This document shows positions 41,054-59,568 of a DNA stretch of 64,000 nt, in pieces. Below the pieces are notes generated by a model that saw only the letters and a list, made by a program, of their open reading frames with translations, did no database searches and was not told the origin of the DNA. The position numbers and the translations under genes were made by a program. This stretch comes from Alphaproteobacteria bacterium (GTDB lineage: Bacteria; Pseudomonadota; Alphaproteobacteria; Bin95), in NCBI GenBank assembly GCA_965660545.1, contig CBFIAF010000004.1, forward strand, positions 76,655 through 140,654, read 5' to 3'. Within the stretch, counting starts at the first letter, position 1. Every line of letters starts with the position of its first letter.

Positions 41054-41782
41054 TTAAGGATATTTGCAGCGGTCCGCCGACACGACAATAAAACCGCGCC
41101 GACCTGTTACGATATTAAAGCGGAATTCCGTTGCTCCCATGACAACCCCATGTGACAATGGCAGCAGACCTTTGGCTTCACTGGTCTTACCGCCGACACG
41201 TGTGAACTTGATTGTGACTGGTTTTGCCGGATCAAACCAACCTTGTGGCCGACCGTCGCCGCCCAGCGCGGCCTTGCCTGTCCCGGTGACGACGATTGCG
41301 GACTTCGCGAACCCAATCCAGTTGTTCTTGCCCCGCTTGCCCTGCGTGCGGAGAATGAAGCGCTTGGTGATGGGGCGATTCTGACACTCATTCGCTGCCT
41401 TCGCCTCACGGATAACGAATGAGAGGCGTTTCGGCGGGACGCCGTTGTCCAGTTGCGATTGCAGCTGGCGAAACAATTCCTTCGCGTCCCCCGTCGGCAC
41501 ATCCTGCTCGTAACGGGCATTCCATTCAGCAACCTGAGTCTTAGAGCCACGAAGTTGGACGTTCAGGTTCTGATTCTCTGCGTCCAGGCTATTGAATTGG
41601 CCCTGTATCTCAGCCAGCTGCTCGCGCAGACTGCGCACTTCACGTTGTGCAAACGCAGTTCCTGTTTCATAGGCAAAGAAGCCTAGCAGCACCAGCGCGG
41701 TCAACGCGGCCGCAAACTTAACTAGCATCATCCGCCGTTTGCGCGTTTGGCGGCGGCGGCCTTCTCTTAATCCAACGGCCAT
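41054..41782 (-). CDS. Hypothetical membrane-anchored coiled-coil protein
   Basis: Basic N-terminus, one TM helix (LVKFAAALTALVLLGFFAY), then a long predicted coiled coil (REVRSLREQLAEIQGQFNSLDAENQNLNVQLRG...) and a C-terminal beta-rich domain. No recognisable family. Divergent from the cytochrome operon. Confidence 0.45.
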   Translation of the reverse strand: MAVGLREGRRRQTRKRRMMLVKFAAALTALVLLGFFAYETGTAFAQREVRSLREQLAEIQGQFNSLDAENQNLNVQLRGSKTQVAEWNARYEQDVPTGDAKELFRQLQSQLDNGVPPKRLSFVIREAKAANECQNRPITKRFILRTQGKRGKNNWIGFAKSAIVVTGTGKAALGGDGRPQGWFDPAKPVTIKFTRVGGKTSEAKGLLPLSHGVVMGATEFRFNIVTGRRGFIVVSADRCKYP

Positions 41783-41862
41783 ACAGTAATTGCTTTCTCA
41801 GCTAAGTTTTTGCGTCCAGCCATCGAACGACCGCCAGATCGCAACGCTTTTCCTGAAGTTCT

Positions 41863-42105
41863 ATGCCGCATCTTTCCTCCACGCAAGAAATTGGGAGATC
41901 ATCCATGCAGCAAGCCGGTGAAGCCCTTTCGGGAAGTGACCAACGCCGATGTGAGCGTTATCCTTGCCCCGATTATGCCGAAGCGTTCTTCGCCAGCCAT
42001 TGGCGTACTTGTGGTGTCGCCGATATTTCAGCAGGCGGTACCTTGCTCGAAACCACGAACCGCCTGATGTGGGTTATATTATCACGCTTTTCGTCTAATA
42101 TGTGA
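41863..42105 (+). CDS. PilZ-signature small ORF (possibly truncated/frameshifted c-di-GMP receptor)
   Basis: Contains RxxxR (RRCER) and, 23 residues later, an exact DxSxxG (DISAGG), the diagnostic c-di-GMP-binding motifs of PilZ domains. The ORF ends only 21 residues later; a +1 frame continues to about 42288 with plausible PilZ C-terminal strands. Confidence 0.45.
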   Translation: MPHLSSTQEIGRSSMQQAGEALSGSDQRRCERYPCPDYAEAFFASHWRTCGVADISAGGTLLETTNRLMWVILSRFSSNM

Positions 42106-42413
42106 CAGAAATGCTTGGTGTTTTCATTCGGCACACGGGCGATTGATTCCTGCTTCCTTCGATCTGTTGCCGCTCACCGAGCACCACAAGGTTCTCAGTG
42201 TCAGCCTGTGGCAAGACGCCCGCTATCTGCTTAGCGCCCGCCTTTGGAGCCCGCTAAGGGTCACCGATAGCGGTTTTTTTGCATAGGCGGAAACTATCAT
42301 CGTCGCCGATGGGAACAAAAAATTCCTCATGTATTTCTCCTATCAAGCTTCCCCATGTAATACTCCGATGCTAAAGTAGCGCTTCGTCAAACCCACACTC
42401 AGGGAAACGCCCA

Positions 42414-43334
42414 ATGGTAAAGTCTATAATACAATTTATATTTGCAGCCGCCCTCGCGCTGACCGCGGTTATCGCGCAGCCCGCTACTGCGGCAAATCTT
42501 GGCCCCAAAACCTGCCAAGAATGCCATCGTGCTGAGTACGAGGTGTGGAAAGGCTCCGCGCACTTCAAGGCCTATCGTGGCGCGCACAAGCACAAAAATG
42601 CAAAAGCGATTGCGGCGGCTTCCGGCACTGGCAAATCCATGCGGAAAAACAAAACCTGCATGACTTGTCATTACACGGTAATTGGCAGCAAGGCGAGAGC
42701 GAAAGCTGGCCCGTCCTGCGAGAGCTGCCACGGCGGCGCTTCCAAGTGGGTAAAAATCCATAATGACCTTGGCGCTGGCGTGAAATCATCTGCGGATGAG
42801 TCTGCTGCCCACAAAAAGTCACGCCTGGCTGCAGCACAAAAAGCCGGCATGATCCATTCATCAATGGTTTACGACATCGCTGAGAACTGTAATTCCTGCC
42901 ACACCATGCAGAAGATTGACCCTGCAATGGCCGGTAAGCTGATCGATGCAGGCCATCCAATCAATGGTAGTTATGAGCTGGTGAAGTATAGCCAGGGTCA
43001 AGTTCGCCATCGCTTCTATCCGCCGAACATCACCGAGAACCAGAAAATGAACAAGGCGGAACTATCCCGCATGTTCTTGACCGGCCACGCTGCTGGTCTC
43101 GTCTATGCGACGAAGGTTCTGGAAAGTGCTGATAATGCCAAGTACAAAGCAGCTATGGAACAACGCGTCGTTGATGCAAAGAAAGCAATCGGCGCTGCTA
43201 AGGGTTCTATACCGGCTGCGGGCGCACTTTTGTCCTCACCGACGGAAGCAAACGCCAGGAAGTTCGTCGCGGCGTTGCAGGGCAAGGACCTGTCCGGTGC
43301 TGTCGGCGGCATGTTGCCCTCTGAGTACAAATAG
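42414..43334 (+). CDS. Periplasmic tetraheme cytochrome c (cytochrome c554-like CxxCH...W..S.H type)
   Basis: Signal peptide (MVKSIIQFIFAAALALTAVIAQPATAA). Four CxxCH motifs (CQECH, CMTCH, CESCH, CNSCH). First gene of the 7-gene operon. Confidence 0.85.
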   Translation: MVKSIIQFIFAAALALTAVIAQPATAANLGPKTCQECHRAEYEVWKGSAHFKAYRGAHKHKNAKAIAAASGTGKSMRKNKTCMTCHYTVIGSKARAKAGPSCESCHGGASKWVKIHNDLGAGVKSSADESAAHKKSRLAAAQKAGMIHSSMVYDIAENCNSCHTMQKIDPAMAGKLIDAGHPINGSYELVKYSQGQVRHRFYPPNITENQKMNKAELSRMFLTGHAAGLVYATKVLESADNAKYKAAMEQRVVDAKKAIGAAKGSIPAAGALLSSPTEANARKFVAALQGKDLSGAVGGMLPSEYK

Positions 43335-43458
43335 GGCGATACTATTCGCGAATCCTGAGGCGGTAATTAATGGATGTGTGCTGGGGTGGGCATGCCTTCA
43401 TTGATACTAGCCAAAGGCCCGCGGTTTTCCGCATCACGCGCTCCAGGGGGATGGCGCT

Positions 43459-45081
43459 TTGGCCTTAGCGACAAGATTAGCGCGTCCGCAACGTTGGGAC
43501 CGTCCGTTCGATCCAGGTATGACTGCGGCAGATTTGCAACACCTAAAACTTGATCCGGTTGTCGCCGCAATTGATGCAGACGCGTTCCCAGGGACTATTC
43601 CACTTGACGGCATTCTAGCTAACGATTCGCGGGTCATTCGTTACAAAGCCGGTGAAATCGTCGTTCGCGAAGGCGATTACGGTAATTCCGCATTTCTTAT
43701 TATGTCCGGCGCTTGCGACGTTGTCGTAAATCCGCCGCTGACTGATGCTCAGCTTGGCCGTCAAACTGAAGCGCCAGCTAGCATTGCGCGCGCGATTTCA
43801 CAACTCTGGAAGCGCACTGTCGTGCCGGAAGTTCGTGACGTCAGCCGCTATGGCGATATCGCCGTCACAGAGACAGATCATCAGGCCGTTTTTCTGCAAG
43901 ATTATGGCATTGTGCTTGGCGGGCGCAGCTTGCCGCGCCTTGGCGCGCAGCAAATGTTTGGTGAGTTGGCCGCTCTGGGCCGTACCCCCCGCGCGGCAAG
44001 CGTCGTTTGTGTCGAAGACGCAGAGGTGCTTGAGATTCGCTGGCAGGGCCTGCGGGAGCTTCGTCGGTTTGATGCCGGCTGGCGCCGCCAGATCGACACC
44101 AACTACCGCGCCAATGCGCTGATCTCGCACCTGCAGGACACGCTGCTGTTCGATGGTCTGTCCGACGACGCGCTCCAATCCATCGCAGACGCGACATTGT
44201 TTGAAACTTATGGCTCCTTTGACTGGAGTTCTTCGTTCCAGCGCGCCGAAAGCGATGCGCGCCTGGATACAGAACCCGTCATTGCGCGTGAAGGCGAATA
44301 TCCAGATGGCCTCTTGCTTATCCGTGCAGGATTTGGCCGCGTTTCTGTGCGCCAAGGGGCAGCAGAACGCACACTGACTTACTTATCTGCTGGCGATCAT
44401 TTCGGCTTGAGCGAGCTTTATGCTGGCTGCAAGGGCGGTGGATCACCGATGGAAGCAACACTCCGCGCGGTCGGTTACGTGGACGCCCTACGTGTGCCAA
44501 CTAAGGTACTCGAAGAGCATGTCTTCCCGCGCATGAACACAGCGCCGGATAGCTTCCTACAGTTTGCAGCCCGCCCCCTTGCAGATGATTCACTGCAGGA
44601 ATGGGCAATCGAAGAGCGTTTCATCAACGGCACCATGGCGATGCTGATTGATTTGGATAGATGCGTGCGCTGTGACGATTGCGTGCGGGCCTGTGCGTCC
44701 ACCCACGGCGGCAACCCTCGTTTTGTCCGCCACGGCAAGATCAATGACCATTGGATGGTCGCCAATGCCTGTATGCATTGCTCTGACCCTGTCTGTATGA
44801 TCGGCTGCCCAACGGGCGCTATTCACCGGACGCAGGCGGGCGGCTCTGTTGTCATCAATGACGACAGCTGCATCGGGTGCGGTACATGCGCCAATTCCTG
44901 CCCTTATAATAATATCCGCCTCGTCGAAATTCGGGACCTGTCTGGAGCCCCGGTTCAGGACGAAGCAACCGGGCAGCCCATTCGTAAGGCGACAAAATGT
45001 GATCTTTGCGCAGGTATTCCTGGTGGCCCCGCCTGTGAGCGCGCCTGCCCGCACGGCGCTCTCCAGCGCGTTGATTTTTAG
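43459..45081 (+). CDS. Cytoplasmic protein with two cyclic-nucleotide-binding (CAP-effector-like) domains fused to a four-cluster [4Fe-4S] ferredoxin module (HybA/NrfC/PsrB-like)
   Basis: N-terminal two-thirds carry two cNMP-binding-like domains (FLIMSGACDVV; GELAALGRTPRAASVVCVEDAEVLEI). C-terminal 150 aa has four Cys clusters: CVRCDDCVRAC, CMHCSDPVCMIGCP, CIGCGTCANSCP, CDLCAGIPGGPACERACP. No signal/TAT peptide and no HTH. Confidence 0.75.
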   Translation: MALATRLARPQRWDRPFDPGMTAADLQHLKLDPVVAAIDADAFPGTIPLDGILANDSRVIRYKAGEIVVREGDYGNSAFLIMSGACDVVVNPPLTDAQLGRQTEAPASIARAISQLWKRTVVPEVRDVSRYGDIAVTETDHQAVFLQDYGIVLGGRSLPRLGAQQMFGELAALGRTPRAASVVCVEDAEVLEIRWQGLRELRRFDAGWRRQIDTNYRANALISHLQDTLLFDGLSDDALQSIADATLFETYGSFDWSSSFQRAESDARLDTEPVIAREGEYPDGLLLIRAGFGRVSVRQGAAERTLTYLSAGDHFGLSELYAGCKGGGSPMEATLRAVGYVDALRVPTKVLEEHVFPRMNTAPDSFLQFAARPLADDSLQEWAIEERFINGTMAMLIDLDRCVRCDDCVRACASTHGGNPRFVRHGKINDHWMVANACMHCSDPVCMIGCPTGAIHRTQAGGSVVINDDSCIGCGTCANSCPYNNIRLVEIRDLSGAPVQDEATGQPIRKATKCDLCAGIPGGPACERACPHGALQRVDF

Positions 45082-45092
45082 GGGCACCAAGA

Positions 45093-45923
45093 ATGATCGT
45101 CCGAACAGTCAACAGCGTCCGGCCCTTCGGCTACACCCTGGCCGCCATCGGTGCCGCTGTGATCGCCAGTCTCGCTTATTATTCGCATCAGGAACACCTG
45201 AAGCTCAGTGACGCCACCTTCGTCACGGGTTGGGTATTGCTGACAGCCATGGTCTCCCTAGCGCTTTTCAACATCCGCAAGCGTCTTTCCATGATGTCAA
45301 TGGGTAGGGCAGCTTATTGGCTTGCGCTGCACGTTGTCGTTGGCCTATTCGCTGTCGGAATGTTCATTGTCCACACAGGTGGCATGTGGGCCACAGGCTT
45401 CTATGAGCAAGTGATGGCTGGATTGTTTTGGGCGACGGCCCTGTCAGGCGTCTTCGGCTGGCTATATCAGCGCGCGATGCCAAGGCGCCTTACACGCATT
45501 GGCTATGAAGTCGTTTATGAACGAATCCCGGCTGAAATTGCCGCCCTTCGCGAGGAAGCTGAAGAAGCCACCCTTGAAGGCGTAGGTGCTAGCGGCGAAC
45601 CAACCCTCGGCCGCTTCTATTCAGAAACCATGCAGGACTTCTTCCGTCGGCCGCGCTTTATGTTAAGCCACCTCTTTGGTGCAGGTGCAGCCCAACAGTG
45701 GGTTGACCTCCGGTTCCGCACGGTGCGCGGGCTAGTTGGCTCACAAGAAGAACCCGCCCTTGCCCGACTTGAAGCTGCCGCAAGACGCAAACTCTCTATA
45801 GACGCTCATTACGCCATTCAACGCTCCTTGAAGCTTTGGGTGGCGGTCCACGTCGTGCTATCTGCAGCGATGTTAACGCTTGCAGTATGGCACCTCATCC
45901 TGGTGCATGTGTACGCCCGATGA
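45093..45923 (+). CDS. Polytopic inner-membrane protein with conserved intramembrane histidines (candidate b-type heme/quinone-interacting subunit)
   Basis: 276 aa with about 5 predicted TM helices. His pairs sit inside helices (HVVVGLFAVGMFIVH; VHVVLSAAMLTLAVWHLILVH), with a roughly 120 aa soluble loop. The gene is 11 nt after the FeS gene and its stop overlaps the next start (ATGA). Confidence 0.55.
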   Translation: MIVRTVNSVRPFGYTLAAIGAAVIASLAYYSHQEHLKLSDATFVTGWVLLTAMVSLALFNIRKRLSMMSMGRAAYWLALHVVVGLFAVGMFIVHTGGMWATGFYEQVMAGLFWATALSGVFGWLYQRAMPRRLTRIGYEVVYERIPAEIAALREEAEEATLEGVGASGEPTLGRFYSETMQDFFRRPRFMLSHLFGAGAAQQWVDLRFRTVRGLVGSQEEPALARLEAAARRKLSIDAHYAIQRSLKLWVAVHVVLSAAMLTLAVWHLILVHVYAR

Positions 45924-48028
45924 CTGAAGACAAAAATCGCTTCGCCCACGATCGATCACCCTATGAGCGCCCGAATTTTCCTTTCCGGTGCGGCAGGGAG
46001 GCAGCCTTTGGCAAACCGTGCCCACGCGGCCCGAGCGCTGGCGGTAATTGCCAGGGGATCTCGGACTGCACGCCATTCCGGACACGCAAGATCGTAACAA
46101 ACACTGAAACCGGTGAAGAAACAGAGACCCAGCGTTGGGAATGCCGCCGCCCGCAACATGCTGGCGGCCCCTGTGCTGAAGGTCCACGGCCAGACGGCAC
46201 ATGCTCTTGCATCCATCCGCCATGTGCACCTAAGCTGACTATCCGGCGTCAGCGCGGCCGCTGGGCAATGCTTGCAGTTGCCGCAATGGTAGCCATGGTA
46301 TTGGCTTTTGTCGGCGCTGCTGGCGGTATCATTGGCCCTAAACCAGATGCAAACGGCATTCTTAGTCATGTTGGCTGGCCGAGTTCAGTCAACCCTGGTC
46401 CGCTTTCCGGCAAGCATGAACAATTCACGGCCAAAGACGGCTGTATTTCATGCCATGTCGGCCATTCAGACACATTAACAGGCTGGGCTGGTGCAATATT
46501 CGAGCGCACCACTATTTCTGAGTCCTGCGTCTCGTGCCACAGCTTCGGAGAGAAACAAGCTAATTCCGACCCTAAAGCCCAATCGCCAATGGCATTCGCC
46601 GCCCATAACACGAAATTCCCGAACCGCACGAATGCCCCAACAGCATCGTGCACGGGCTGCCACACGGAACATAAAGGTGTGGGTGCATCGATCACGCCGA
46701 TGGATGATGGCCAGTGCTCTGCATGCCACACCACCAAGTTCGACAGTTTCTCCAAATCCCATCCGGCGTTTGGGACAAATTTCCCGCATGAAAGTGCACG
46801 AACCATCAAGTTTCAGCATGGCAAGCACCTAGAAACGCATTTTGTAGACCAGCGCTATATCGATAGAGCGCCAAAGAATGGCTGCATCTCCTGCCATACA
46901 GACCAAGTTGATGGGCGTTTGCTACCGGGCAGTTTTGAGAATGGCTGTGCCGCATGTCATGAACTTGCGATTAAAGAACAGGGAATGGTCGTCTTCGGCC
47001 TTCCTGAATTGAGTGACCCTGAATTGACTGCAGAAGCCCGTGACTCATGCGGCTTTCCTGTGCCACAGCGTGAGCCGGCCCGTGCGACCCTTGAAGCCCT
47101 GGCTGAGGCACTTCCGACAATGCAGGCGCTTGGTGAAAACGCCGAGTCTGGCAACCTGAATGGCGTCATGACTGCAGTTGAGGCCTTAAGTGAGGCCCAG
47201 ACCGCGATTGCCGAAGCGCGGGATGAGCTTGCAGAGGCTGTCGACATGTCAGAAGCCGTTTCCCTTGATTCGCTCTCCCCGATCGCAGCATTCCTTCTGG
47301 CTGTTCCGGCTGATGATGCAGATGAATATAGCGAAGCAGCAGCAGCCTTCCTGATTGCCGCTGCCGCCGACGGGCAGGTCCCGCTTGCCGAAGCAATCGA
47401 CGCTAAGGGTGGTGATGCAACCGCGCTGCTGGCAGGCCTTTCACCCGAGTTAGTGACGGAAGTTACTTGCGCTTGGGCCGCAAACACGGAATATGAACCT
47501 AAGCAAGACCCTGAACCGGGCGCTGGCTGGGCTGCGCAAGAGCTGCAAGTGTCTTATCTGCCAACAGGCCATGCGGATGCTGTGACCAAGGGATGGATTG
47601 CACTTGGTCTAGCAAATCGTGGCAGTCAAGATGAAGGTGTCGAAGCTTTTGCTGACCTCGTGCTCAGTGCGGGCGACGGGCCGGGTCGTTGCTTTAAGTG
47701 TCACGTCGCACCAGCGGCAGATGCTGAAAAACAAGTCGTACAATGGGCTATTCCACGCGCAGATGTTCGCCCATTCACAACTTTCAATCATGATCCGCAC
47801 TTAAATGTACTAGATCAGGGAGCCGGATGTGCGACATGCCATAGTCAGTTGGAGCCGGGCGCAACCTTGGCTGATGGGCAATCTCGCCCAGGGCCGCATG
47901 CAAACGACTTCAAGCCGATCGATCAAGCAACTTGCAAAGATTGTCACCGCCCGGGCGCGGTTCGGCAGGATTGCGCACTTTGCCACCGCTACCATAGCAA
48001 TCCATCCATCCGGAAACGGACGTTGTGA
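45920..48028 (+). CDS. Membrane-anchored multiheme cytochrome c (10 CxxCH) with Cys-rich N-terminal region
   Basis: Ten CxxCH motifs arranged 6+4, split by a roughly 200 aa Ala/Glu-rich low-complexity linker. One hydrophobic helix (WAMLAVAAMVAMVLAFVGAAGG) sits after a roughly 110 aa N-terminal region containing 9 Cys (C-x10-C-x8-C-x5-C ... C-x9-C-x7-C-x-C-x4-C). The start at 45920 is inferred from the ATGA overlap. Confidence 0.75.
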   Translation: MTEDKNRFAHDRSPYERPNFPFRCGREAAFGKPCPRGPSAGGNCQGISDCTPFRTRKIVTNTETGEETETQRWECRRPQHAGGPCAEGPRPDGTCSCIHPPCAPKLTIRRQRGRWAMLAVAAMVAMVLAFVGAAGGIIGPKPDANGILSHVGWPSSVNPGPLSGKHEQFTAKDGCISCHVGHSDTLTGWAGAIFERTTISESCVSCHSFGEKQANSDPKAQSPMAFAAHNTKFPNRTNAPTASCTGCHTEHKGVGASITPMDDGQCSACHTTKFDSFSKSHPAFGTNFPHESARTIKFQHGKHLETHFVDQRYIDRAPKNGCISCHTDQVDGRLLPGSFENGCAACHELAIKEQGMVVFGLPELSDPELTAEARDSCGFPVPQREPARATLEALAEALPTMQALGENAESGNLNGVMTAVEALSEAQTAIAEARDELAEAVDMSEAVSLDSLSPIAAFLLAVPADDADEYSEAAAAFLIAAAADGQVPLAEAIDAKGGDATALLAGLSPELVTEVTCAWAANTEYEPKQDPEPGAGWAAQELQVSYLPTGHADAVTKGWIALGLANRGSQDEGVEAFADLVLSAGDGPGRCFKCHVAPAADAEKQVVQWAIPRADVRPFTTFNHDPHLNVLDQGAGCATCHSQLEPGATLADGQSRPGPHANDFKPIDQATCKDCHRPGAVRQDCALCHRYHSNPSIRKRTL

Positions 48029-48036
48029 GGATTAAG

Positions 48037-49809
48037 ATGATGGAAGAGAGAAAGATGGAATTTGGAATCCGCCCCTTGGGGCGCCGCCTTCTAATTGCTG
48101 GCGCTTTCGCCGCTGCGGTATTTGGCATGCCAATTACAGCAGTAGCAGCCGAAAAAGAAGATCCGCATGCGGATCTTATGGCCGAGGAAAGCTACCCAAC
48201 AGCCGCCCAATGTGGTGCCTGTCACACCCAGGTCTATCGCGAATGGGCGTCGTCTAACCACGCATACGCATCGATTTCGCCGATGTTCCACAAGTTCGAG
48301 CAGAAGATTAATGATCTCTCGAGCGGCACCATCCGAGGCTTCTGCGTACGGTGCCATCAACAGATCGGCACGCAGCTCAATGAACGCCGCGACCTCCCGC
48401 TTTGGGAACGCAATCAGATTTCACGCGAAGGCATTTCCTGCGTGACGTGCCACCGCGTCCGTGAAGAATTCGGCAAGGTCAACGGCGAACGCCGGATCAT
48501 CCCAGGCCAGGTCTACACGCCTGTCAGCGGTGTTGGCGATGGCAAAAAGCTAAAGGAAATCATTGAGAACCGTAGCGAATATCGTGTTGCGGTTAGCGAA
48601 AAGGAACGCGGGGCCCAGATTCACACGGGCGTTTACAAGTTCCCACAGATTTCTAAGTCAGAATTCTGTGTGTCTTGTCACCAGGTCGCTGTGAACCCAG
48701 GCATCAAGCTTGAAGTTGTTTGGGAGCAGTATAGAAACTCCCCAGCAGCCGCTAATGGCGTCACGTGTCAGGATTGCCATATGGGCAAAGTGCCAGGCCG
48801 GGCTGACGGTTATGCAACCGGGCCCGTCGCAATCGTTAATGGTGAAGAAATCAATCCGGACCGCAGGCACTCCAACCATGCCTTCTACGGCCCTGGCTAC
48901 CCAATTGCTCATCCTGGCATCTTCCCACACAACCCAGATGCAGCTGAAATTCCCATCGAAGACTGGCTGGAATTCGACTACCGCTCTAAGTGGGGCTCGG
49001 AAGAATTTGAAGAGAAAGTCGCCAACGGCGAGATTGATGAAGACAGCCTGCCAGACGCATGGTCCGATTCAGTTGACCGTGAGGAAGCTTGGGAAATCAT
49101 CCAGGAGAACGTCGGACTTCTGGAAGAAAAACGCGACCTTCGCCGTCAAGTGATGGAAAATGGTTCTCGTCTTGATGGCCCGTTCTTCGCTAGCGCGCCA
49201 AAACAAGGGTCCTCCCTCAGCTTTGACATCAAACTGACCAACACAGATGACGGCCATAACCTGCCGTCTGGTTCTCTCGGTGCCCAGCCTGAAATCTGGC
49301 TGAATGTTGCTGTCGTATCGCCCAGCGGCAAGACAGTATGGGAATCTGGTTACGTTGATGGGAATGGCGATATGGCCGACATTCACTCCCTAGAGGTAAG
49401 AGCGGGCAAAATCGAATATGATGACCAGCTTTTCAACTTGCAAACCAAGTTTCTATTCACGAACGTTAAGGGGACTGAACGCGAATGGTATCTGCCAATA
49501 AATATCGATATCGATCAGCTTCCATTCATCCGCCCAGCAAACGTGCCGACGACTATCCTAAACCATGCGCCATTTATCCGCATGGAAGGTCGTTCGATTC
49601 CACCACTTGGGTTTCGCAACGCTAGCTACACCGTGCCGGCAGATGCGTTGACGGAAAAAGGTACTTACAAAATGGCCGTCCGACTGCGGAGCCGCGCCGA
49701 ACCGATCTACTTCATGCGGTTCGTCGATTCGACGCCGGAAATGGAAGAAGCCATGAACAGCTGGATGCTTGATTTCCATTCCTACACCGTGGAATTTGAA
49801 GTCAACTGA
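48037..49809 (+). CDS. Secreted pentaheme cytochrome c with large heme-free C-terminal domain
   Basis: Signal peptide. Five CxxCH (CGACH, CVRCH, CVTCH, CVSCH, CQDCH), all in the first roughly 280 aa. A roughly 300 aa C-terminal domain has no heme motif. GAGGA RBS before the ATG at 48037; the ORF track starts at a GTG at 48025 that overlaps the upstream stop. Confidence 0.8.
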   Translation: MMEERKMEFGIRPLGRRLLIAGAFAAAVFGMPITAVAAEKEDPHADLMAEESYPTAAQCGACHTQVYREWASSNHAYASISPMFHKFEQKINDLSSGTIRGFCVRCHQQIGTQLNERRDLPLWERNQISREGISCVTCHRVREEFGKVNGERRIIPGQVYTPVSGVGDGKKLKEIIENRSEYRVAVSEKERGAQIHTGVYKFPQISKSEFCVSCHQVAVNPGIKLEVVWEQYRNSPAAANGVTCQDCHMGKVPGRADGYATGPVAIVNGEEINPDRRHSNHAFYGPGYPIAHPGIFPHNPDAAEIPIEDWLEFDYRSKWGSEEFEEKVANGEIDEDSLPDAWSDSVDREEAWEIIQENVGLLEEKRDLRRQVMENGSRLDGPFFASAPKQGSSLSFDIKLTNTDDGHNLPSGSLGAQPEIWLNVAVVSPSGKTVWESGYVDGNGDMADIHSLEVRAGKIEYDDQLFNLQTKFLFTNVKGTEREWYLPINIDIDQLPFIRPANVPTTILNHAPFIRMEGRSIPPLGFRNASYTVPADALTEKGTYKMAVRLRSRAEPIYFMRFVDSTPEMEEAMNSWMLDFHSYTVEFEVN

Positions 49810-49888
49810 TTGGGGATCGCCTGCGGCGCGCCAAGCTGCCAAAGAGAACAGTTAAGGCGCGCCGCAGGCGAACGAGGAGAATAGAGGC

Positions 49889-51415
49889 GTGACACCAAGT
49901 TTTCTAAAGATGACCGGGCGCATTGCAATGGCGACAGCGGCTTCCGCACTGGCGATGATGGTCGCCACTGGCGGCCCTGCATATGCGGCGAGTGCCCATG
50001 ACGACAGTCCGCGCAAGATGGATCCTAATGTCAAACCGTCAGAGCATGACTCTGATGTCTTCAAGGCGGATCCAACATACGAAGAGAAAGTGTATGACGC
50101 TGAGCGCCAACTCGAAATCTATGGCGGCAAGCGCAACATTGAGGAGCCACGCCCGATCCTAGAAGTTGGTCGTCCGCAATATGTCGAAGGTCCTTTCGAC
50201 GAAGGCATTAATGTAATTGGCGAAAAGAACCTTTTGTTCCCATCGTTTTCAGTTTTTGGTGACGTCCGTACAGCGGTAGCCGCGAATGACGTTGGCGGTG
50301 ATGTTGTGTACGAGTTTGCCAACCGCCTGAACCTGGACCTCGACCTTAAGCTAACCGCCACAGAACGTGTTCACGGCTTCTTCCGCCCGATCGACGAGAA
50401 CGGTAAGTTCATAGGATATCGGACCGGCGATAAGAGGGGCAATAATGGCCGTGACGGTAAGCTCGATGCAAACCCAGAAACATTATTCTTTGAAGGTGAT
50501 ATTGGTGCCATATATGGCGGGTTAGCAGACGAATACACAACCTTTGACCTGCCAATCGCATTTGGTTTGACACCCTTCGTCATGCAGAATGGGCTTTGGG
50601 TTGATGAGGCCTTTGTTGGGGGCGGCATATCACTCGCTGCAATGAACAGTCGTACACTTGATATCACAAACATGGACATCACCTTCTTTGGTGGTTTCGA
50701 TGAAATCGATTCACCGGCATTCGTTGGCCAGGACGGTGTCCTAGATACAGACGACGTATCAATTTATGCCGTAGCCGCTTTCGTCGATTGGTTCGAAGGC
50801 TATTCTGAGTTCGGTATCGGCTATGTCGACGGAAGAGAGCAACTCAACGATATTGACTATTTCAACTTTACCGGTGCCTATACGTCACGGTATGGCGGCT
50901 GGCTCTCCAACTCCGTCAGGCTATTTGGCGCTGTGGGTCAAGATACAAACGGCCGTGCTAAAACGGCCGATGGCTTTGCCTTACTCATAGAAAACTCTTT
51001 GATCACGTCCAAGCCAGATGTCTTTGTTCCCTATTTCAATGGCTGGGTTGGTATCGATAAGCCGCAATCCCTCGCACGCAACAACGGCGGGCTATTGAAG
51101 AACACCGGCATCACGTTCGAGAACGACGGCATGACCTCTTTTCCGACGCTGGATGATACCGCACAAGACACATTCGGTGGTGCCATCGGCGTCAACTATC
51201 TGTTCAGTCTAGACCAGCAGCTCGTGGTTGAAGCGTCTACGGTTCAAAGACTTGATACTGCCTCACCTGCTCAGGGTGGTCAGTATGCTGTTGGCTTCCG
51301 CTATCAGATCCCAGTCACGAACCGGGTTATCCTGCGTACAGACGGTATCTACGGCATTCGGGAAAGCCAGGAAGACATTGGCGGCGTTCGCTTCGAGCTG
51401 CGCGTTAAATTCTAA
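49889..51415 (+). CDS. Outer-membrane beta-barrel protein (porin-like; candidate cytochrome conduit)
   Basis: Signal peptide (MTGRIAMATAASALAMMVATGGPAYAASA), alternating amphipathic beta-strand pattern, Gly/aromatic-rich, and a C-terminal ...RFELRVKF ending in Phe, the OMP sorting signature. Confidence 0.65.
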   Translation: MTPSFLKMTGRIAMATAASALAMMVATGGPAYAASAHDDSPRKMDPNVKPSEHDSDVFKADPTYEEKVYDAERQLEIYGGKRNIEEPRPILEVGRPQYVEGPFDEGINVIGEKNLLFPSFSVFGDVRTAVAANDVGGDVVYEFANRLNLDLDLKLTATERVHGFFRPIDENGKFIGYRTGDKRGNNGRDGKLDANPETLFFEGDIGAIYGGLADEYTTFDLPIAFGLTPFVMQNGLWVDEAFVGGGISLAAMNSRTLDITNMDITFFGGFDEIDSPAFVGQDGVLDTDDVSIYAVAAFVDWFEGYSEFGIGYVDGREQLNDIDYFNFTGAYTSRYGGWLSNSVRLFGAVGQDTNGRAKTADGFALLIENSLITSKPDVFVPYFNGWVGIDKPQSLARNNGGLLKNTGITFENDGMTSFPTLDDTAQDTFGGAIGVNYLFSLDQQLVVEASTVQRLDTASPAQGGQYAVGFRYQIPVTNRVILRTDGIYGIRESQEDIGGVRFELRVKF

Positions 51416-51463
51416 TCACGATCGTATTGCTAGCCAAAATGGCACCGAGATTGGGGAAGAACG

Positions 51464-52729
51464 ATGGATAATTTGGCGAACTATGTCGCCATAGGTGCAG
51501 CCGGGCTGCTGGGCCTTTACATTTTGTCTCTGCTGATGGGCTCGCTCCGTCAGCAGAGCCAAATGGCGCGGCATTATGAGGAACAATCACAGCTATTCCG
51601 CGCACGTGCGGAAGGCTTGCAGAGGATCCGTGCTGAAGAGATCGAGAAAACCCAAAACACCTGGGCAGGCCTTCGGAAATTCAAAGTTGCCCGTAAGATC
51701 AATGAGATCACAGATTGCCACTCCATCTACCTTGAACCTCATGACGGTCGGCCCCTACCGCCGTTTGAGCCAGGCCAGTTTCTAACGTTCAAGTTTGCTG
51801 TGCCCGATCAGCCTAGCGACGTAATACGTTGCTACTCCCTGTCAGACGCACCTGGCCGTGACTACTACAGGATTACCGTCAAGAAGGTGCCACCGCCCCG
51901 TGGCAAGCCTGAAATAGCACCTGGTGTGTCCTCCACCTTCGTAAATGAAGTCTTGAATGAAGGCGATATAATTGATGTACGTGCGCCCAATGGCGGCTTC
52001 TATCTGAAGCGTGAACATAAACGTCCAGTCGTCCTAATCGGTGGCGGCGTTGGCATCACACCAGTGCTCAGCATGCTGAACTACATTGTGGAGCATGAGC
52101 CGCAGCGGGAAACATGGTTCTTCTTTGGGGCGCCCAATAAAGCCGGCCATATTATGAAGGATCACCTAGCCCAAATTGCTGCGGAAAATCCTAATATCCG
52201 CATGAACATTTGCTACAGCGACCCATCAGATGACGATGTGTTTGGGGAAGATTACGACCATCACGCCCGCGTTTCCGTAGAGCTGTTCAAGAAAGTCCTG
52301 CCTTCTAACAATTTCGAATATTACTTCTGCGGCCCACCGCCAATGATGAATGCGCTTGATGCGGACCTCAAAGCTTGGGGCGTACCAGAAGCCGATATTC
52401 ACTCTGAAGGCTTTGGCCCTGCTTCAGTTAAGAAGCCCAAACCACCTGCTGTAGAAGGTGCTGCAGAATTAGCATCTGTATCGGTAACGTTTGCTAAATC
52501 TGGCAAGACATTGGATTGGACGCCTGCTGCTGGAACAATTCTTGATTTGGCGGAAGCAAACGGTGTTGATGTTGCTTCGGGTTGCCGGGCCGGCAGCTGT
52601 GGTACTTGCCTCACCGCCGTTATAGAAGGCGATGTGGATTACGCAACGCCGCCAGACGCTCCGATCGAAAATGGCTCTTGCCTCGCGTGTGTCGGCACCC
52701 CGAAAGGGCCAATCAAGATAAACGCCTAA
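51464..52729 (+). CDS. Membrane-anchored FNR-family flavoprotein reductase with C-terminal plant-type [2Fe-2S] ferredoxin domain
   Basis: N-terminal TM helix (VAIGAAGLLGLYILSLLMGS), FAD motif RCYSLSD, NAD(P) motif GGGVGITP, C-terminal CRAGSCGTCL...CLACV 2Fe-2S motif. Last gene of the operon. Confidence 0.75.
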   Translation: MDNLANYVAIGAAGLLGLYILSLLMGSLRQQSQMARHYEEQSQLFRARAEGLQRIRAEEIEKTQNTWAGLRKFKVARKINEITDCHSIYLEPHDGRPLPPFEPGQFLTFKFAVPDQPSDVIRCYSLSDAPGRDYYRITVKKVPPPRGKPEIAPGVSSTFVNEVLNEGDIIDVRAPNGGFYLKREHKRPVVLIGGGVGITPVLSMLNYIVEHEPQRETWFFFGAPNKAGHIMKDHLAQIAAENPNIRMNICYSDPSDDDVFGEDYDHHARVSVELFKKVLPSNNFEYYFCGPPPMMNALDADLKAWGVPEADIHSEGFGPASVKKPKPPAVEGAAELASVSVTFAKSGKTLDWTPAAGTILDLAEANGVDVASGCRAGSCGTCLTAVIEGDVDYATPPDAPIENGSCLACVGTPKGPIKINA

Positions 52730-59220: not shown

Positions 59221-59568
59221 TCAGTCTCCATCTGGGTAGAAAATAGCATCAATGCTGAGCGCTGCCAGCCGGTCATAATCAACAAATACGGCGGCTAGAG
59301 ATTTTTCTTCTGCATTCAGTCGAACAACGAACACCGCTGTTTCAAATGACCTTCCAGTGCCATTGAGGCTGCAGTGAACCGTGTAGCGCAGCTTTTCGCC
59401 TCGCTCGCGAGGCTCGGCATAATCGTAGATTAAAAGTCCCCGCGCGCTCCAGGCGCGCAGAGAATATTCTCGCCCACCAATTTTAGCGGCTGCGTCTGGC
59501 GCTTCGAGCCTGTCTTCGAGACTACGGGGAATTCTTCGTGCGTTGGCGTCCATGTCAGAAGCCTTCAC
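59221..59568 (-). CDS. Probable PilZ-domain protein (degenerate motif)
   Basis: RxxxR (RRIPR) followed 23 residues later by AWSARG in place of the D/NxSxxG position. 115 aa, a typical PilZ size. Confidence 0.4.
   Translation of the reverse strand: MKASDMDANARRIPRSLEDRLEAPDAAAKIGGREYSLRAWSARGLLIYDYAEPRERGEKLRYTVHCSLNGTGRSFETAVFVVRLNAEEKSLAAVFVDYDRLAALSIDAIFYPDGD

Follow-up and report, generated by a model that had tools for sequence, protein, structure and literature searches.

The closest described counterparts of the gene considered here are the stand-alone PilZ receptors, such as PA0012 and PA4608/MapZ of P. aeruginosa, DgrA of Caulobacter, McrA of Sinorhizobium and MotL of Shewanella. The last three are PilZ-only regulators of flagellar motility (PMC8203827). 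Like these receptors, the intact orthologues found in relatives of the organism under study are about 94 residues long, consist of the PilZ domain only, and place the RRxxxR and DxSxxG motifs on a flexible N-terminus and on strands 2 and 3 of a six-stranded barrel. Unlike them, the copy described in this work is a pseudogene, and the family is known here as sequence and predicted structure. The other described systems with which the locus can be compared are the bacterial unitary pseudogenes that decay by point mutation and, for the hairpin found next to the gene, the Rho-independent terminators on one side and the c-di-GMP riboswitches (GEMM-I/II) and leader attenuators on the other.

The locus is a 631-bp interval (positions 41783 to 42413) of a 64,000-nucleotide stretch of alphaproteobacterial DNA, denoted here as the window. 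It is flanked by a gene for a 242-residue protein on the minus strand (41054-41782) and by a gene for a tetraheme cytochrome, whose ATG starts at 42414. A previous sequence-only reading had taken it for a 630-bp leader of the cytochrome operon. The observations presented below lead instead, with high confidence, to the view that these 631 bp contain a dead PilZ gene of 94 codons (41905-42187), the predicted former terminator of this gene, and some 130 nt in which the promoter and the ribosome-binding site of the operon are probably located.

The first indication of a PilZ gene came from an ORF on the plus strand (41863-42105), which encodes 80 residues. It contains the sequence RRCER (residues 28-32; 41944-41958), which conforms to the RxxxR expected near the N-terminus, and DISAGG (residues 54-59; 42022-42039), which conforms to [D/N]xSxxG. 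Both c-di-GMP motifs were found in the ORF to which the sequence-only reading had assigned them, as was the stop 21 residues past DISAGG; the spacing between them is 21 residues, and not the 23 given in that reading, where about 20-30 are expected for PilZ. Compared with the Pfam PilZ profile (PF07238, gathering cut-off of 22.5 bits), the ORF alone scored 20.0 bits (E 9e-4) and aligned with profile positions 1-40 of 102, and no full-length match above the gathering score was obtained from the window ORF (20.0-20.6 bits, depending on the start). A second frame is open from 42143 to 42286. In spite of the low score, this ORF is not a chance match to PilZ, because intact orthologues occupy the same locus in relatives. 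Elsewhere in the window, a 115-residue ORF on the minus strand (59221-59568) that contains RRIPR also appeared PilZ-like; its PilZ identity was discarded, as it gave no Pfam match.

The loci of relatives, from alphaproteobacterial MAGs and metagenomes, were gathered by a search with the tetraheme protein. Wherever the tetraheme identity is 86% or higher, the gene order is nitroreductase (-), 242-residue protein (-), PilZ (+), tetraheme cytochrome (+), cNMP/4Fe-4S protein (+) and onward. An intact PilZ ORF of 94 residues, ending in DLSPLTKH and a stop codon, occupies this position in L002, L003, L004, L013, L016, L023 and L024, so that the alignment of homologues from relatives, proposed earlier as a check, confirmed the conservation of the gene at this locus. 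The intact orthologues score 50.6-52.3 bits against the Pfam PilZ profile (positions 1-86 of 102), and the family consensus at the first motif is RRxYER. A search with an intact orthologue yielded a family of 26 members, with proteins of about 94 residues, while a homologue search with the reconstructed pseudogene protein returned just one protein. An AlphaFold model of the family, built from an alignment of 20 sequences (pLDDT 75.5), predicts a disordered N-terminus carrying RxxxR and a six-stranded barrel. When the modelled fold was compared with the PDB, the top 30 or so matches were PilZ domains, mostly bound to c-di-GMP, the best of them being PA0012, a stand-alone PilZ protein of 85 residues in complex with c-di-GMP (TM 0.64/0.70). 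PDB searches by sequence, with either a single sequence or the family profile, gave no match to any solved PilZ.

Some lineages show particular variants of the gene. In L014, codon 42 is altered so that the c-di-GMP motif reads DILAGG (Ser to Leu), an allele that is also found in the cluster representative P0002, and in L016 the sequence at codon 79 reads HTDDG; both ORFs are otherwise intact, and these changes may reflect an early relaxation of constraint in other lineages. In the clade of L008 (L008:469-819, L009-L011, protein P0001 and TARA contigs), an insertion of 2 bp within a T9 run has given PilZ a different C-terminus (ending in RFDFFFRRPGTRGVLMSA). The start codon in this L008/TARA clade is GTG, not ATG.

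The comparison with relatives also defined the limits of the gene. In L002, L003, L013, L016 and L023 an in-frame TAA is located between the equivalent of the upstream ATG (41863 in the window) and that of the ATG at 41905. This indicates that the latter is the true start and that the 14 additional N-terminal codons of the 80-residue ORF are noncoding. From this ATG, five lesions separate the window copy from an intact gene; their positions, together with those of the remaining features, are listed in the table.

Features of the interval between the 242-residue gene and the tetraheme cytochrome gene, in window coordinates
Feature	Positions	Strand	Remarks
Former ribosome-binding site (GGGAGA) and true start (ATG)	41893-41898; 41905-41907	+	Conserved in relatives
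PilZ pseudogene	41905-42187	+	Ancestral 94 codons and former stop; aligned codon for codon with intact genes
Residual 66-residue ORF	41905-42105	+	Authentic PilZ residues 1-53, then 13 out-of-frame residues
Lesion 1: loss of 1 bp at codon 54/55 (about 42066)	42065-42067	+	Frameshift; absent from L012
Lesion 2: GAA to TAA at invariant Glu65	42096-42098	+	Nonsense in the restored frame
Lesion 3: GGA to TGA at invariant Gly81	42144-42146	+	Nonsense in the restored frame
Lesion 4: a further 1-bp deletion (codon 85, about 42156)	42155-42157	+	
Lesion 5: ancestral stop TAA to CAC	42185-42187	+	Common to the window and L012
Pairing of the sequence-only reading: CCGCTATC (42220-42227) with GATAGCGG (42266-42273)	42220-42273	+	Mutually exclusive with the conserved register
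Predicted relic of the PilZ terminator, conserved register: GCGCCCGC/UUUGG/GCCC-loop-GGGU/CCGAU/GCGG, then U7 (42274-42280)	42234-42280	+	Stem base eroded
Candidate extended -10 of the operon's own promoter: TGCTAAAGT	42369-42377	+	Proposed from conservation
Shine-Dalgarno sequence (AGGGA) and tetraheme start codon	42401-42405; 42414-42416	+	Nearly invariant in 12 loci

Counting the two nonsense codons, 11 positions that are invariant among 20 family members are replaced or stopped in the window copy (Y16C, H23D, Q26E, D35T, A46T, E65*, A68T, P71L, V74F, G81*, A83L). The sequence-only reading had offered a frameshifted pseudogene as one alternative, and the two 1-bp deletions, the two nonsense codons and the lost stop bear it out. 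It had also proposed that a single +1 frame continued the gene to about 42288. The ancestral frame requires two 1-bp repairs and contains a TAA and a TGA, and the gene ended at 42187; the frame now remains open up to a TAG at 42284-42286 because the ancestral stop codon has been lost. The window copy is, therefore, a pseudogene that arose by ordinary gene decay. As in other bacterial unitary pseudogenes that decay by point mutation, it has accumulated multiple independent frameshifts and nonsense codons with a neutral ratio of nonsynonymous to synonymous changes (N:S), and its decay is in common with a sister lineage while the orthologues of relatives are intact. Nothing in it is unusual with respect to other unitary pseudogenes, except for the survival of the signature motifs. 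The residual 66-residue ORF retains them because both motifs are encoded in the 5' half of the gene, before any frameshift is reached.

The pattern of substitutions pointed in the same direction. Among intact PilZ copies, dN/dS is 0.017-0.019, and L002 and L003 differ by 16 synonymous changes and a single nonsynonymous one, showing that the intact gene is under strong purifying selection in close relatives. When the window copy is compared with L002 or L003, dN/dS rises to 0.27-0.35, and no sign of purifying selection was found in it. When changes were assigned to branches by parsimony, PilZ gave N:S counts of 9:2 for the common branch of the window and L012, 14:3 for the window branch and 9:0 for that of L012, while those for the adjacent 242-residue gene on the same branches are 4:14, 1:15 and 2:7. 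For the clade formed by the window and L012 as a whole, PilZ thus accumulates 32:5 versus 7:36 in the neighbouring gene (Fisher p = 2e-10). These data show that, in the window lineage, the gene has been inactivated by five lesions and evolves neutrally, as it does in its sister L012.

L012 is the closest relative of the window (95% tetraheme identity), and it provided the clue to the timing of the decay. Both have in common the loss of the stop codon and nine amino-acid changes (including Q15R, Y16C, H23D, D58Y, M59I, P71L, S89L and K93E). However, L012 carries no frameshift or nonsense codon of the window copy and has stops of its own at codons 13 and 26. The combination of a common stop loss and common amino-acid changes with different nonsense codons suggests that constraint was lost in the common ancestor of both lineages. 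The decay would have begun there once PilZ function had become dispensable, with the loss of the stop and the replacement of invariant residues, and the disabling hits would have followed later and independently in each lineage. The situation in L001 is of another kind: its positions 1-540 contain a frameshifted remnant resembling an IS-type transposase (HTH and rve core, 22.5 bits) in place of PilZ. The junction (L001:533) coincides with the final codon of PilZ, and from there onward the sequence shows 100% identity to L013. The absence of PilZ in L001 is either a recent IS-associated deletion or the product of a chimeric MAG contig. PilZ has been lost at least once, and perhaps a second time, within the clade.

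Two explanations would leave the window with a functional product. According to one of them, already raised by the sequence-only reading, the gene is functional, its frameshift being an error of sequencing or assembly, for instance a homopolymer indel; the fact that the two 1-bp deletions are found only in the window lineage would fit such an error. However, neither deletion lies within a homopolymer and, when both are repaired, the TAA at codon 65 and the TGA at codon 81 are still in frame and the stop codon is still missing; two of the five lesions are nonsense substitutions. Independent assemblies built from different runs (L036, L037 and L039, the last across the 486 bp that its contig covers) match the window at 100% identity over the interval. 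The sole difference in L038 over the 631 bp is a T6 where the window, like L036, L037 and L039, has the T7 of 42274-42280, which is either a length polymorphism of the homopolymer or a read error. Furthermore, some 9 kb of flanking coding DNA align with L003 and L002 with no frame-breaking indel, and the N:S of 32:5 is also against an intact gene. The probability left to an error is close to nil. The other explanation considers the residual ORF as a functional mini-protein that binds c-di-GMP through RxxxR and DxSxxG. In its favor, the Shine-Dalgarno sequence, the ATG and both motifs have been kept, and the truncated allele is widespread: the product of the ORF is identical to a database protein (P0025), and this exact 66-residue product is encoded on at least 24 contigs. 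Nevertheless, judging by the model of an intact orthologue, residues 1-53 hold only strands 1-3 of the six-stranded barrel, so that no uninterrupted ORF encodes a complete barrel, and the Pfam score of the 66-residue ORF (20.6 bits, profile positions 1-40 of 102) is under the cut-off. The invariant Y16, H23, Q26, D35 and A46 are all replaced in this part of the protein, the N-terminal 52 codons show 11-12 nonsynonymous versus 9-10 synonymous changes against L002/L003 (1:5 between intact copies), and in L012 the same N-terminal part is interrupted by the stops at codons 13 and 26. A working mini-protein is accordingly very hard to credit, and the residual ORF is most likely inert.

Downstream of the pseudogene, the window contains an inverted repeat with arms at 42211-42227 and 42266-42282, and a run of seven T (42274-42280) that lies 133 nt 5' of the ATG at 42414. 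This agrees with the imperfect inverted repeat followed by TTTTTTT, about 130 nt before the tetraheme start, of the sequence-only reading, which placed the repeat across the 3' end of the putative gene; the hairpin is in fact 46 nt downstream of the former end at 42187. In relatives the hairpin also starts 46 nt after the PilZ stop (the equivalent of 42187), and it is present in all eight distinct lineages. In those with an intact gene, the minimum free energy (MFE) fold of the sequence after the stop is GCGCCCGC-C-AUUGG-A-GCCC-loop-GGGC-CG-CCGAU-A-GCGGGCG(U), directly followed by U4-5. The run that follows the stem is T4-T5 in L001-L004, L012, L013 and L016, and it is absent in the L008/TARA clade, though the stem is kept there. 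In this conserved register, 92.6% of cells pair across the eight distinct lineages, versus 33-53% in slid controls, and one compensatory pair is observed (U-A to C-G, in L004); the covariation counts of both this register and the pairing proposed earlier, obtained from eight distinct and closely related sequences, are not significant versus shuffles. Wherever PilZ is intact, the conserved register has an energy of -24 to -31 kcal/mol; the value is -16.5 in L012 and -14 in the window, where the 3' arm has changed from GCGGGCGTTTTT to GC-GGTTTTTTT. The MFE of the window over 77 nt is -25.1 kcal/mol, and the fold of the window stretch alone is unremarkable (z = -1.58, with 11 of 200 shuffles equally good).

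The element shares with Rho-independent terminators a GC-rich imperfect hairpin, an immediate U-run and, in relatives, a position 46 nt past a same-strand stop; in the window, a shortened stem and the U7 remain. It differs from simple terminators in that the hairpin of relatives is long (17 pairs with internal loops), and a simple promoter and terminator scan of the interval did not call it, the loop being too long. It also differs from the usual ones in the L008 clade, which lacks the U-run, and in the window, where the gene that it served is dead. A GC-rich stem-loop with a U-run 3' of the stem, downstream of a gene end on the same strand, is most simply read as the predicted intrinsic (Rho-independent) terminator of the PilZ gene. 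The simplest reading of the window sequence is that this hairpin is decaying along with the gene, though it is still a hairpin followed by U7. The structure at 42234-42273, together with the U7, would have ended PilZ transcription and, now partly eroded, may still shield the operon from transcription that arrives from upstream. A stem without a U-run, as in the L008/TARA clade, is a poor fit to an element that serves termination alone.

The sequence-only reading had left the choice between an intrinsic terminator and an attenuator. The strong stem and the U-run of relatives make the former plausible. The latter would imply that the cytochrome operon is controlled in cis by an RNA element, made of the hairpin and the T-run, within an extended leader. 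The element resembles the c-di-GMP riboswitches and leader attenuators in its location 5' of an operon and in its hairpin and U-run, which recall an expression platform. Such a role is further suggested by the two mutually exclusive pairings present in most lineages, the one of the sequence-only reading (42220-42227/42266-42273) and the conserved register (42234-42241/42270-42273 onward), by a hairpin region that is unchanged in L001, which has no PilZ gene, and by the stem that L008 keeps without a U-run. Unlike GEMM-I/II or attenuators, however, the element pertains to the gene upstream, at its 3' end, and has no credible match to a c-di-GMP riboswitch or any other Rfam family, either in the window interval (E up to 10) or in L003 (E up to 1), chance-level matches being all that both scans gave. 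The alternative pairing (CCGCTATC/GATAGCGG) is weak in all lineages (-5 to -14 kcal/mol), and its 5' arm is deleted in L004. Moreover, the stem erodes along with the gene in the window and in L012, a conserved sequence resembling an extended -10 is located past the hairpin and is seen again in L022, where no PilZ gene is found upstream, and the operon homologues of L005, L007 and L017-L022 lack an upstream PilZ, having other genes or short gaps there. An attenuator is thus unlikely, and the former terminator of PilZ is preferred.

The 130 nt or so beyond the hairpin probably carry the operon's own promoter and ribosome-binding site. Among close lineages, the candidate extended -10 element listed in the table has the pattern TGnTAA(A/G)(G/A)T throughout, the L008 clade (with TCCTCAGGT) being the sole exception. 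It is seen again, as TGATAAAGT, in front of the tetraheme gene of L022, a relative at 71% that has no PilZ gene. This conservation suggests that the cytochrome operon has a promoter of its own downstream of the hairpin. A simple promoter scan of the interval gave nothing relevant, the one promoter-like site detected, on the minus strand, being at chance level. Another block conserved in most close lineages, GGGAAC-AAAAA(A/G)TTC at its 5' part, is found at 42311-42336. It resembles an ECF-sigma-like GGAAC-N16/17-(C/A)(C/T)TT, with GGCGC in L004 and a weak -10-like part. An FNR/CRP-type or ECF-type site within this block (42311-42325) was considered and rejected, as the palindrome is not conserved.

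The cytochrome cluster itself (42414-52729) comprises, in this order, genes for a c554-like tetraheme cytochrome (306 residues), a 540-residue fusion of cNMP-binding and 4Fe-4S domains, a 276-residue membrane protein, two multiheme cytochromes (730 and 594 residues), a 508-residue protein with no Pfam match and a 421-residue FAD/NAD/2Fe-2S reductase. The cNMP-binding/4Fe-4S protein contains no DNA-binding domain. The first four genes are found in conserved order in L007, at about 50% identity, and L005, a MAG labelled Chloroflexota, contains the first two, its contig ending there. The longest ORF of the 730-residue cytochrome begins with TTG and overlaps the preceding 276-residue gene by 88 nt (45836-45923); its real start is probably further downstream; the gene calls of L008 place it at the stop of the preceding gene.

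The proximity of PilZ to this cluster raises the possibility that, in relatives, the intact protein couples c-di-GMP to the multiheme-cytochrome/FeS complex, and that the window lineage has lost this control. Throughout the clade with at least 86% tetraheme identity, including the TARA contigs, PilZ is indeed found immediately upstream of the operon. However, no PilZ gene precedes the operon homologues whose tetraheme identity is 46-71% (L005, L007 and L017-L022). A hairpin and a spacing of some 225 nt stand between PilZ and the operon, and PilZ has been lost within the clade itself, once at least and perhaps twice. More distant members of the PilZ family were equally informative. In the six such lineages that were read (L025, L027, L029/L030, L031, L033/L034 and L035), the divergent gene for the 225/242-residue protein is always located upstream of PilZ, with the nitroreductase gene beyond it wherever the contig reaches. 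Downstream of PilZ, genes for an ABC ATPase and an ABC-2 permease are present in five of the six; dksA (-) then follows in all six, and cytochromes in none. Beyond dksA, fliX (-) is found in five, and flgI (+) is annotated in three. The product of the 225/242-residue gene has an N-terminal membrane segment and a coiled coil, and in L033 the gap between PilZ and the ABC ATPase gene is just 34 nt, which makes co-transcription possible. Since the distant lineages lack cytochrome neighbours, the adjacency of PilZ and cytochromes is a derived arrangement confined to one clade, and a coupling of c-di-GMP to the complex through PilZ is very improbable.

If it points anywhere, the conserved neighbourhood of PilZ points to motility or export, which would fit what is described for DgrA, McrA and MotL. 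A search of the 64-kb window for dksA, fliX, flgI and flgK, by which it was asked whether the decay of PilZ follows the loss of flagellar neighbours, gave no match. A more elaborate scenario can be imagined for the marine alphaproteobacterial clade that retains the intact gene, in which an ancestral motility-linked PilZ, once the cytochrome cluster had been inserted beside it, was recruited for c-di-GMP control of the latter. On this view, a switch in lifestyle would have uncoupled the conduit from c-di-GMP, leaving as its traces the dead gene of the window/L012 lineage and the possible loss in L001, and the conserved hairpin would act as a tunable point of read-through. This is a speculative and very unlikely chain of events. 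As for the window, the second-messenger control of the conduit that had been proposed is not sustained, considering that the window and L012 carry a dead PilZ, that L001 has none, and that the gene does not accompany the operon homologues at 71% tetraheme identity or less.

Considering all these observations, the window copy belongs to a family already known and has decayed in an ordinary way. The tempting notion of an electron conduit that, in this genome, is under c-di-GMP control by way of a PilZ gene or a leader is unsupported. The annotation of public assemblies should be corrected accordingly: their 66-residue ORF is what remains of a pseudogene, and no long regulatory leader is to be annotated in the interval. 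The locus provides a clean case of gene decay, in which a relaxation in common with a sister lineage would have been followed by independent disabling hits. It also draws attention to a small PilZ family that is ancestrally linked, not to cytochromes, but to the gene for the 225/242-residue membrane/coiled-coil protein, an ABC-2 transporter and the dksA-fliX-flgI region.
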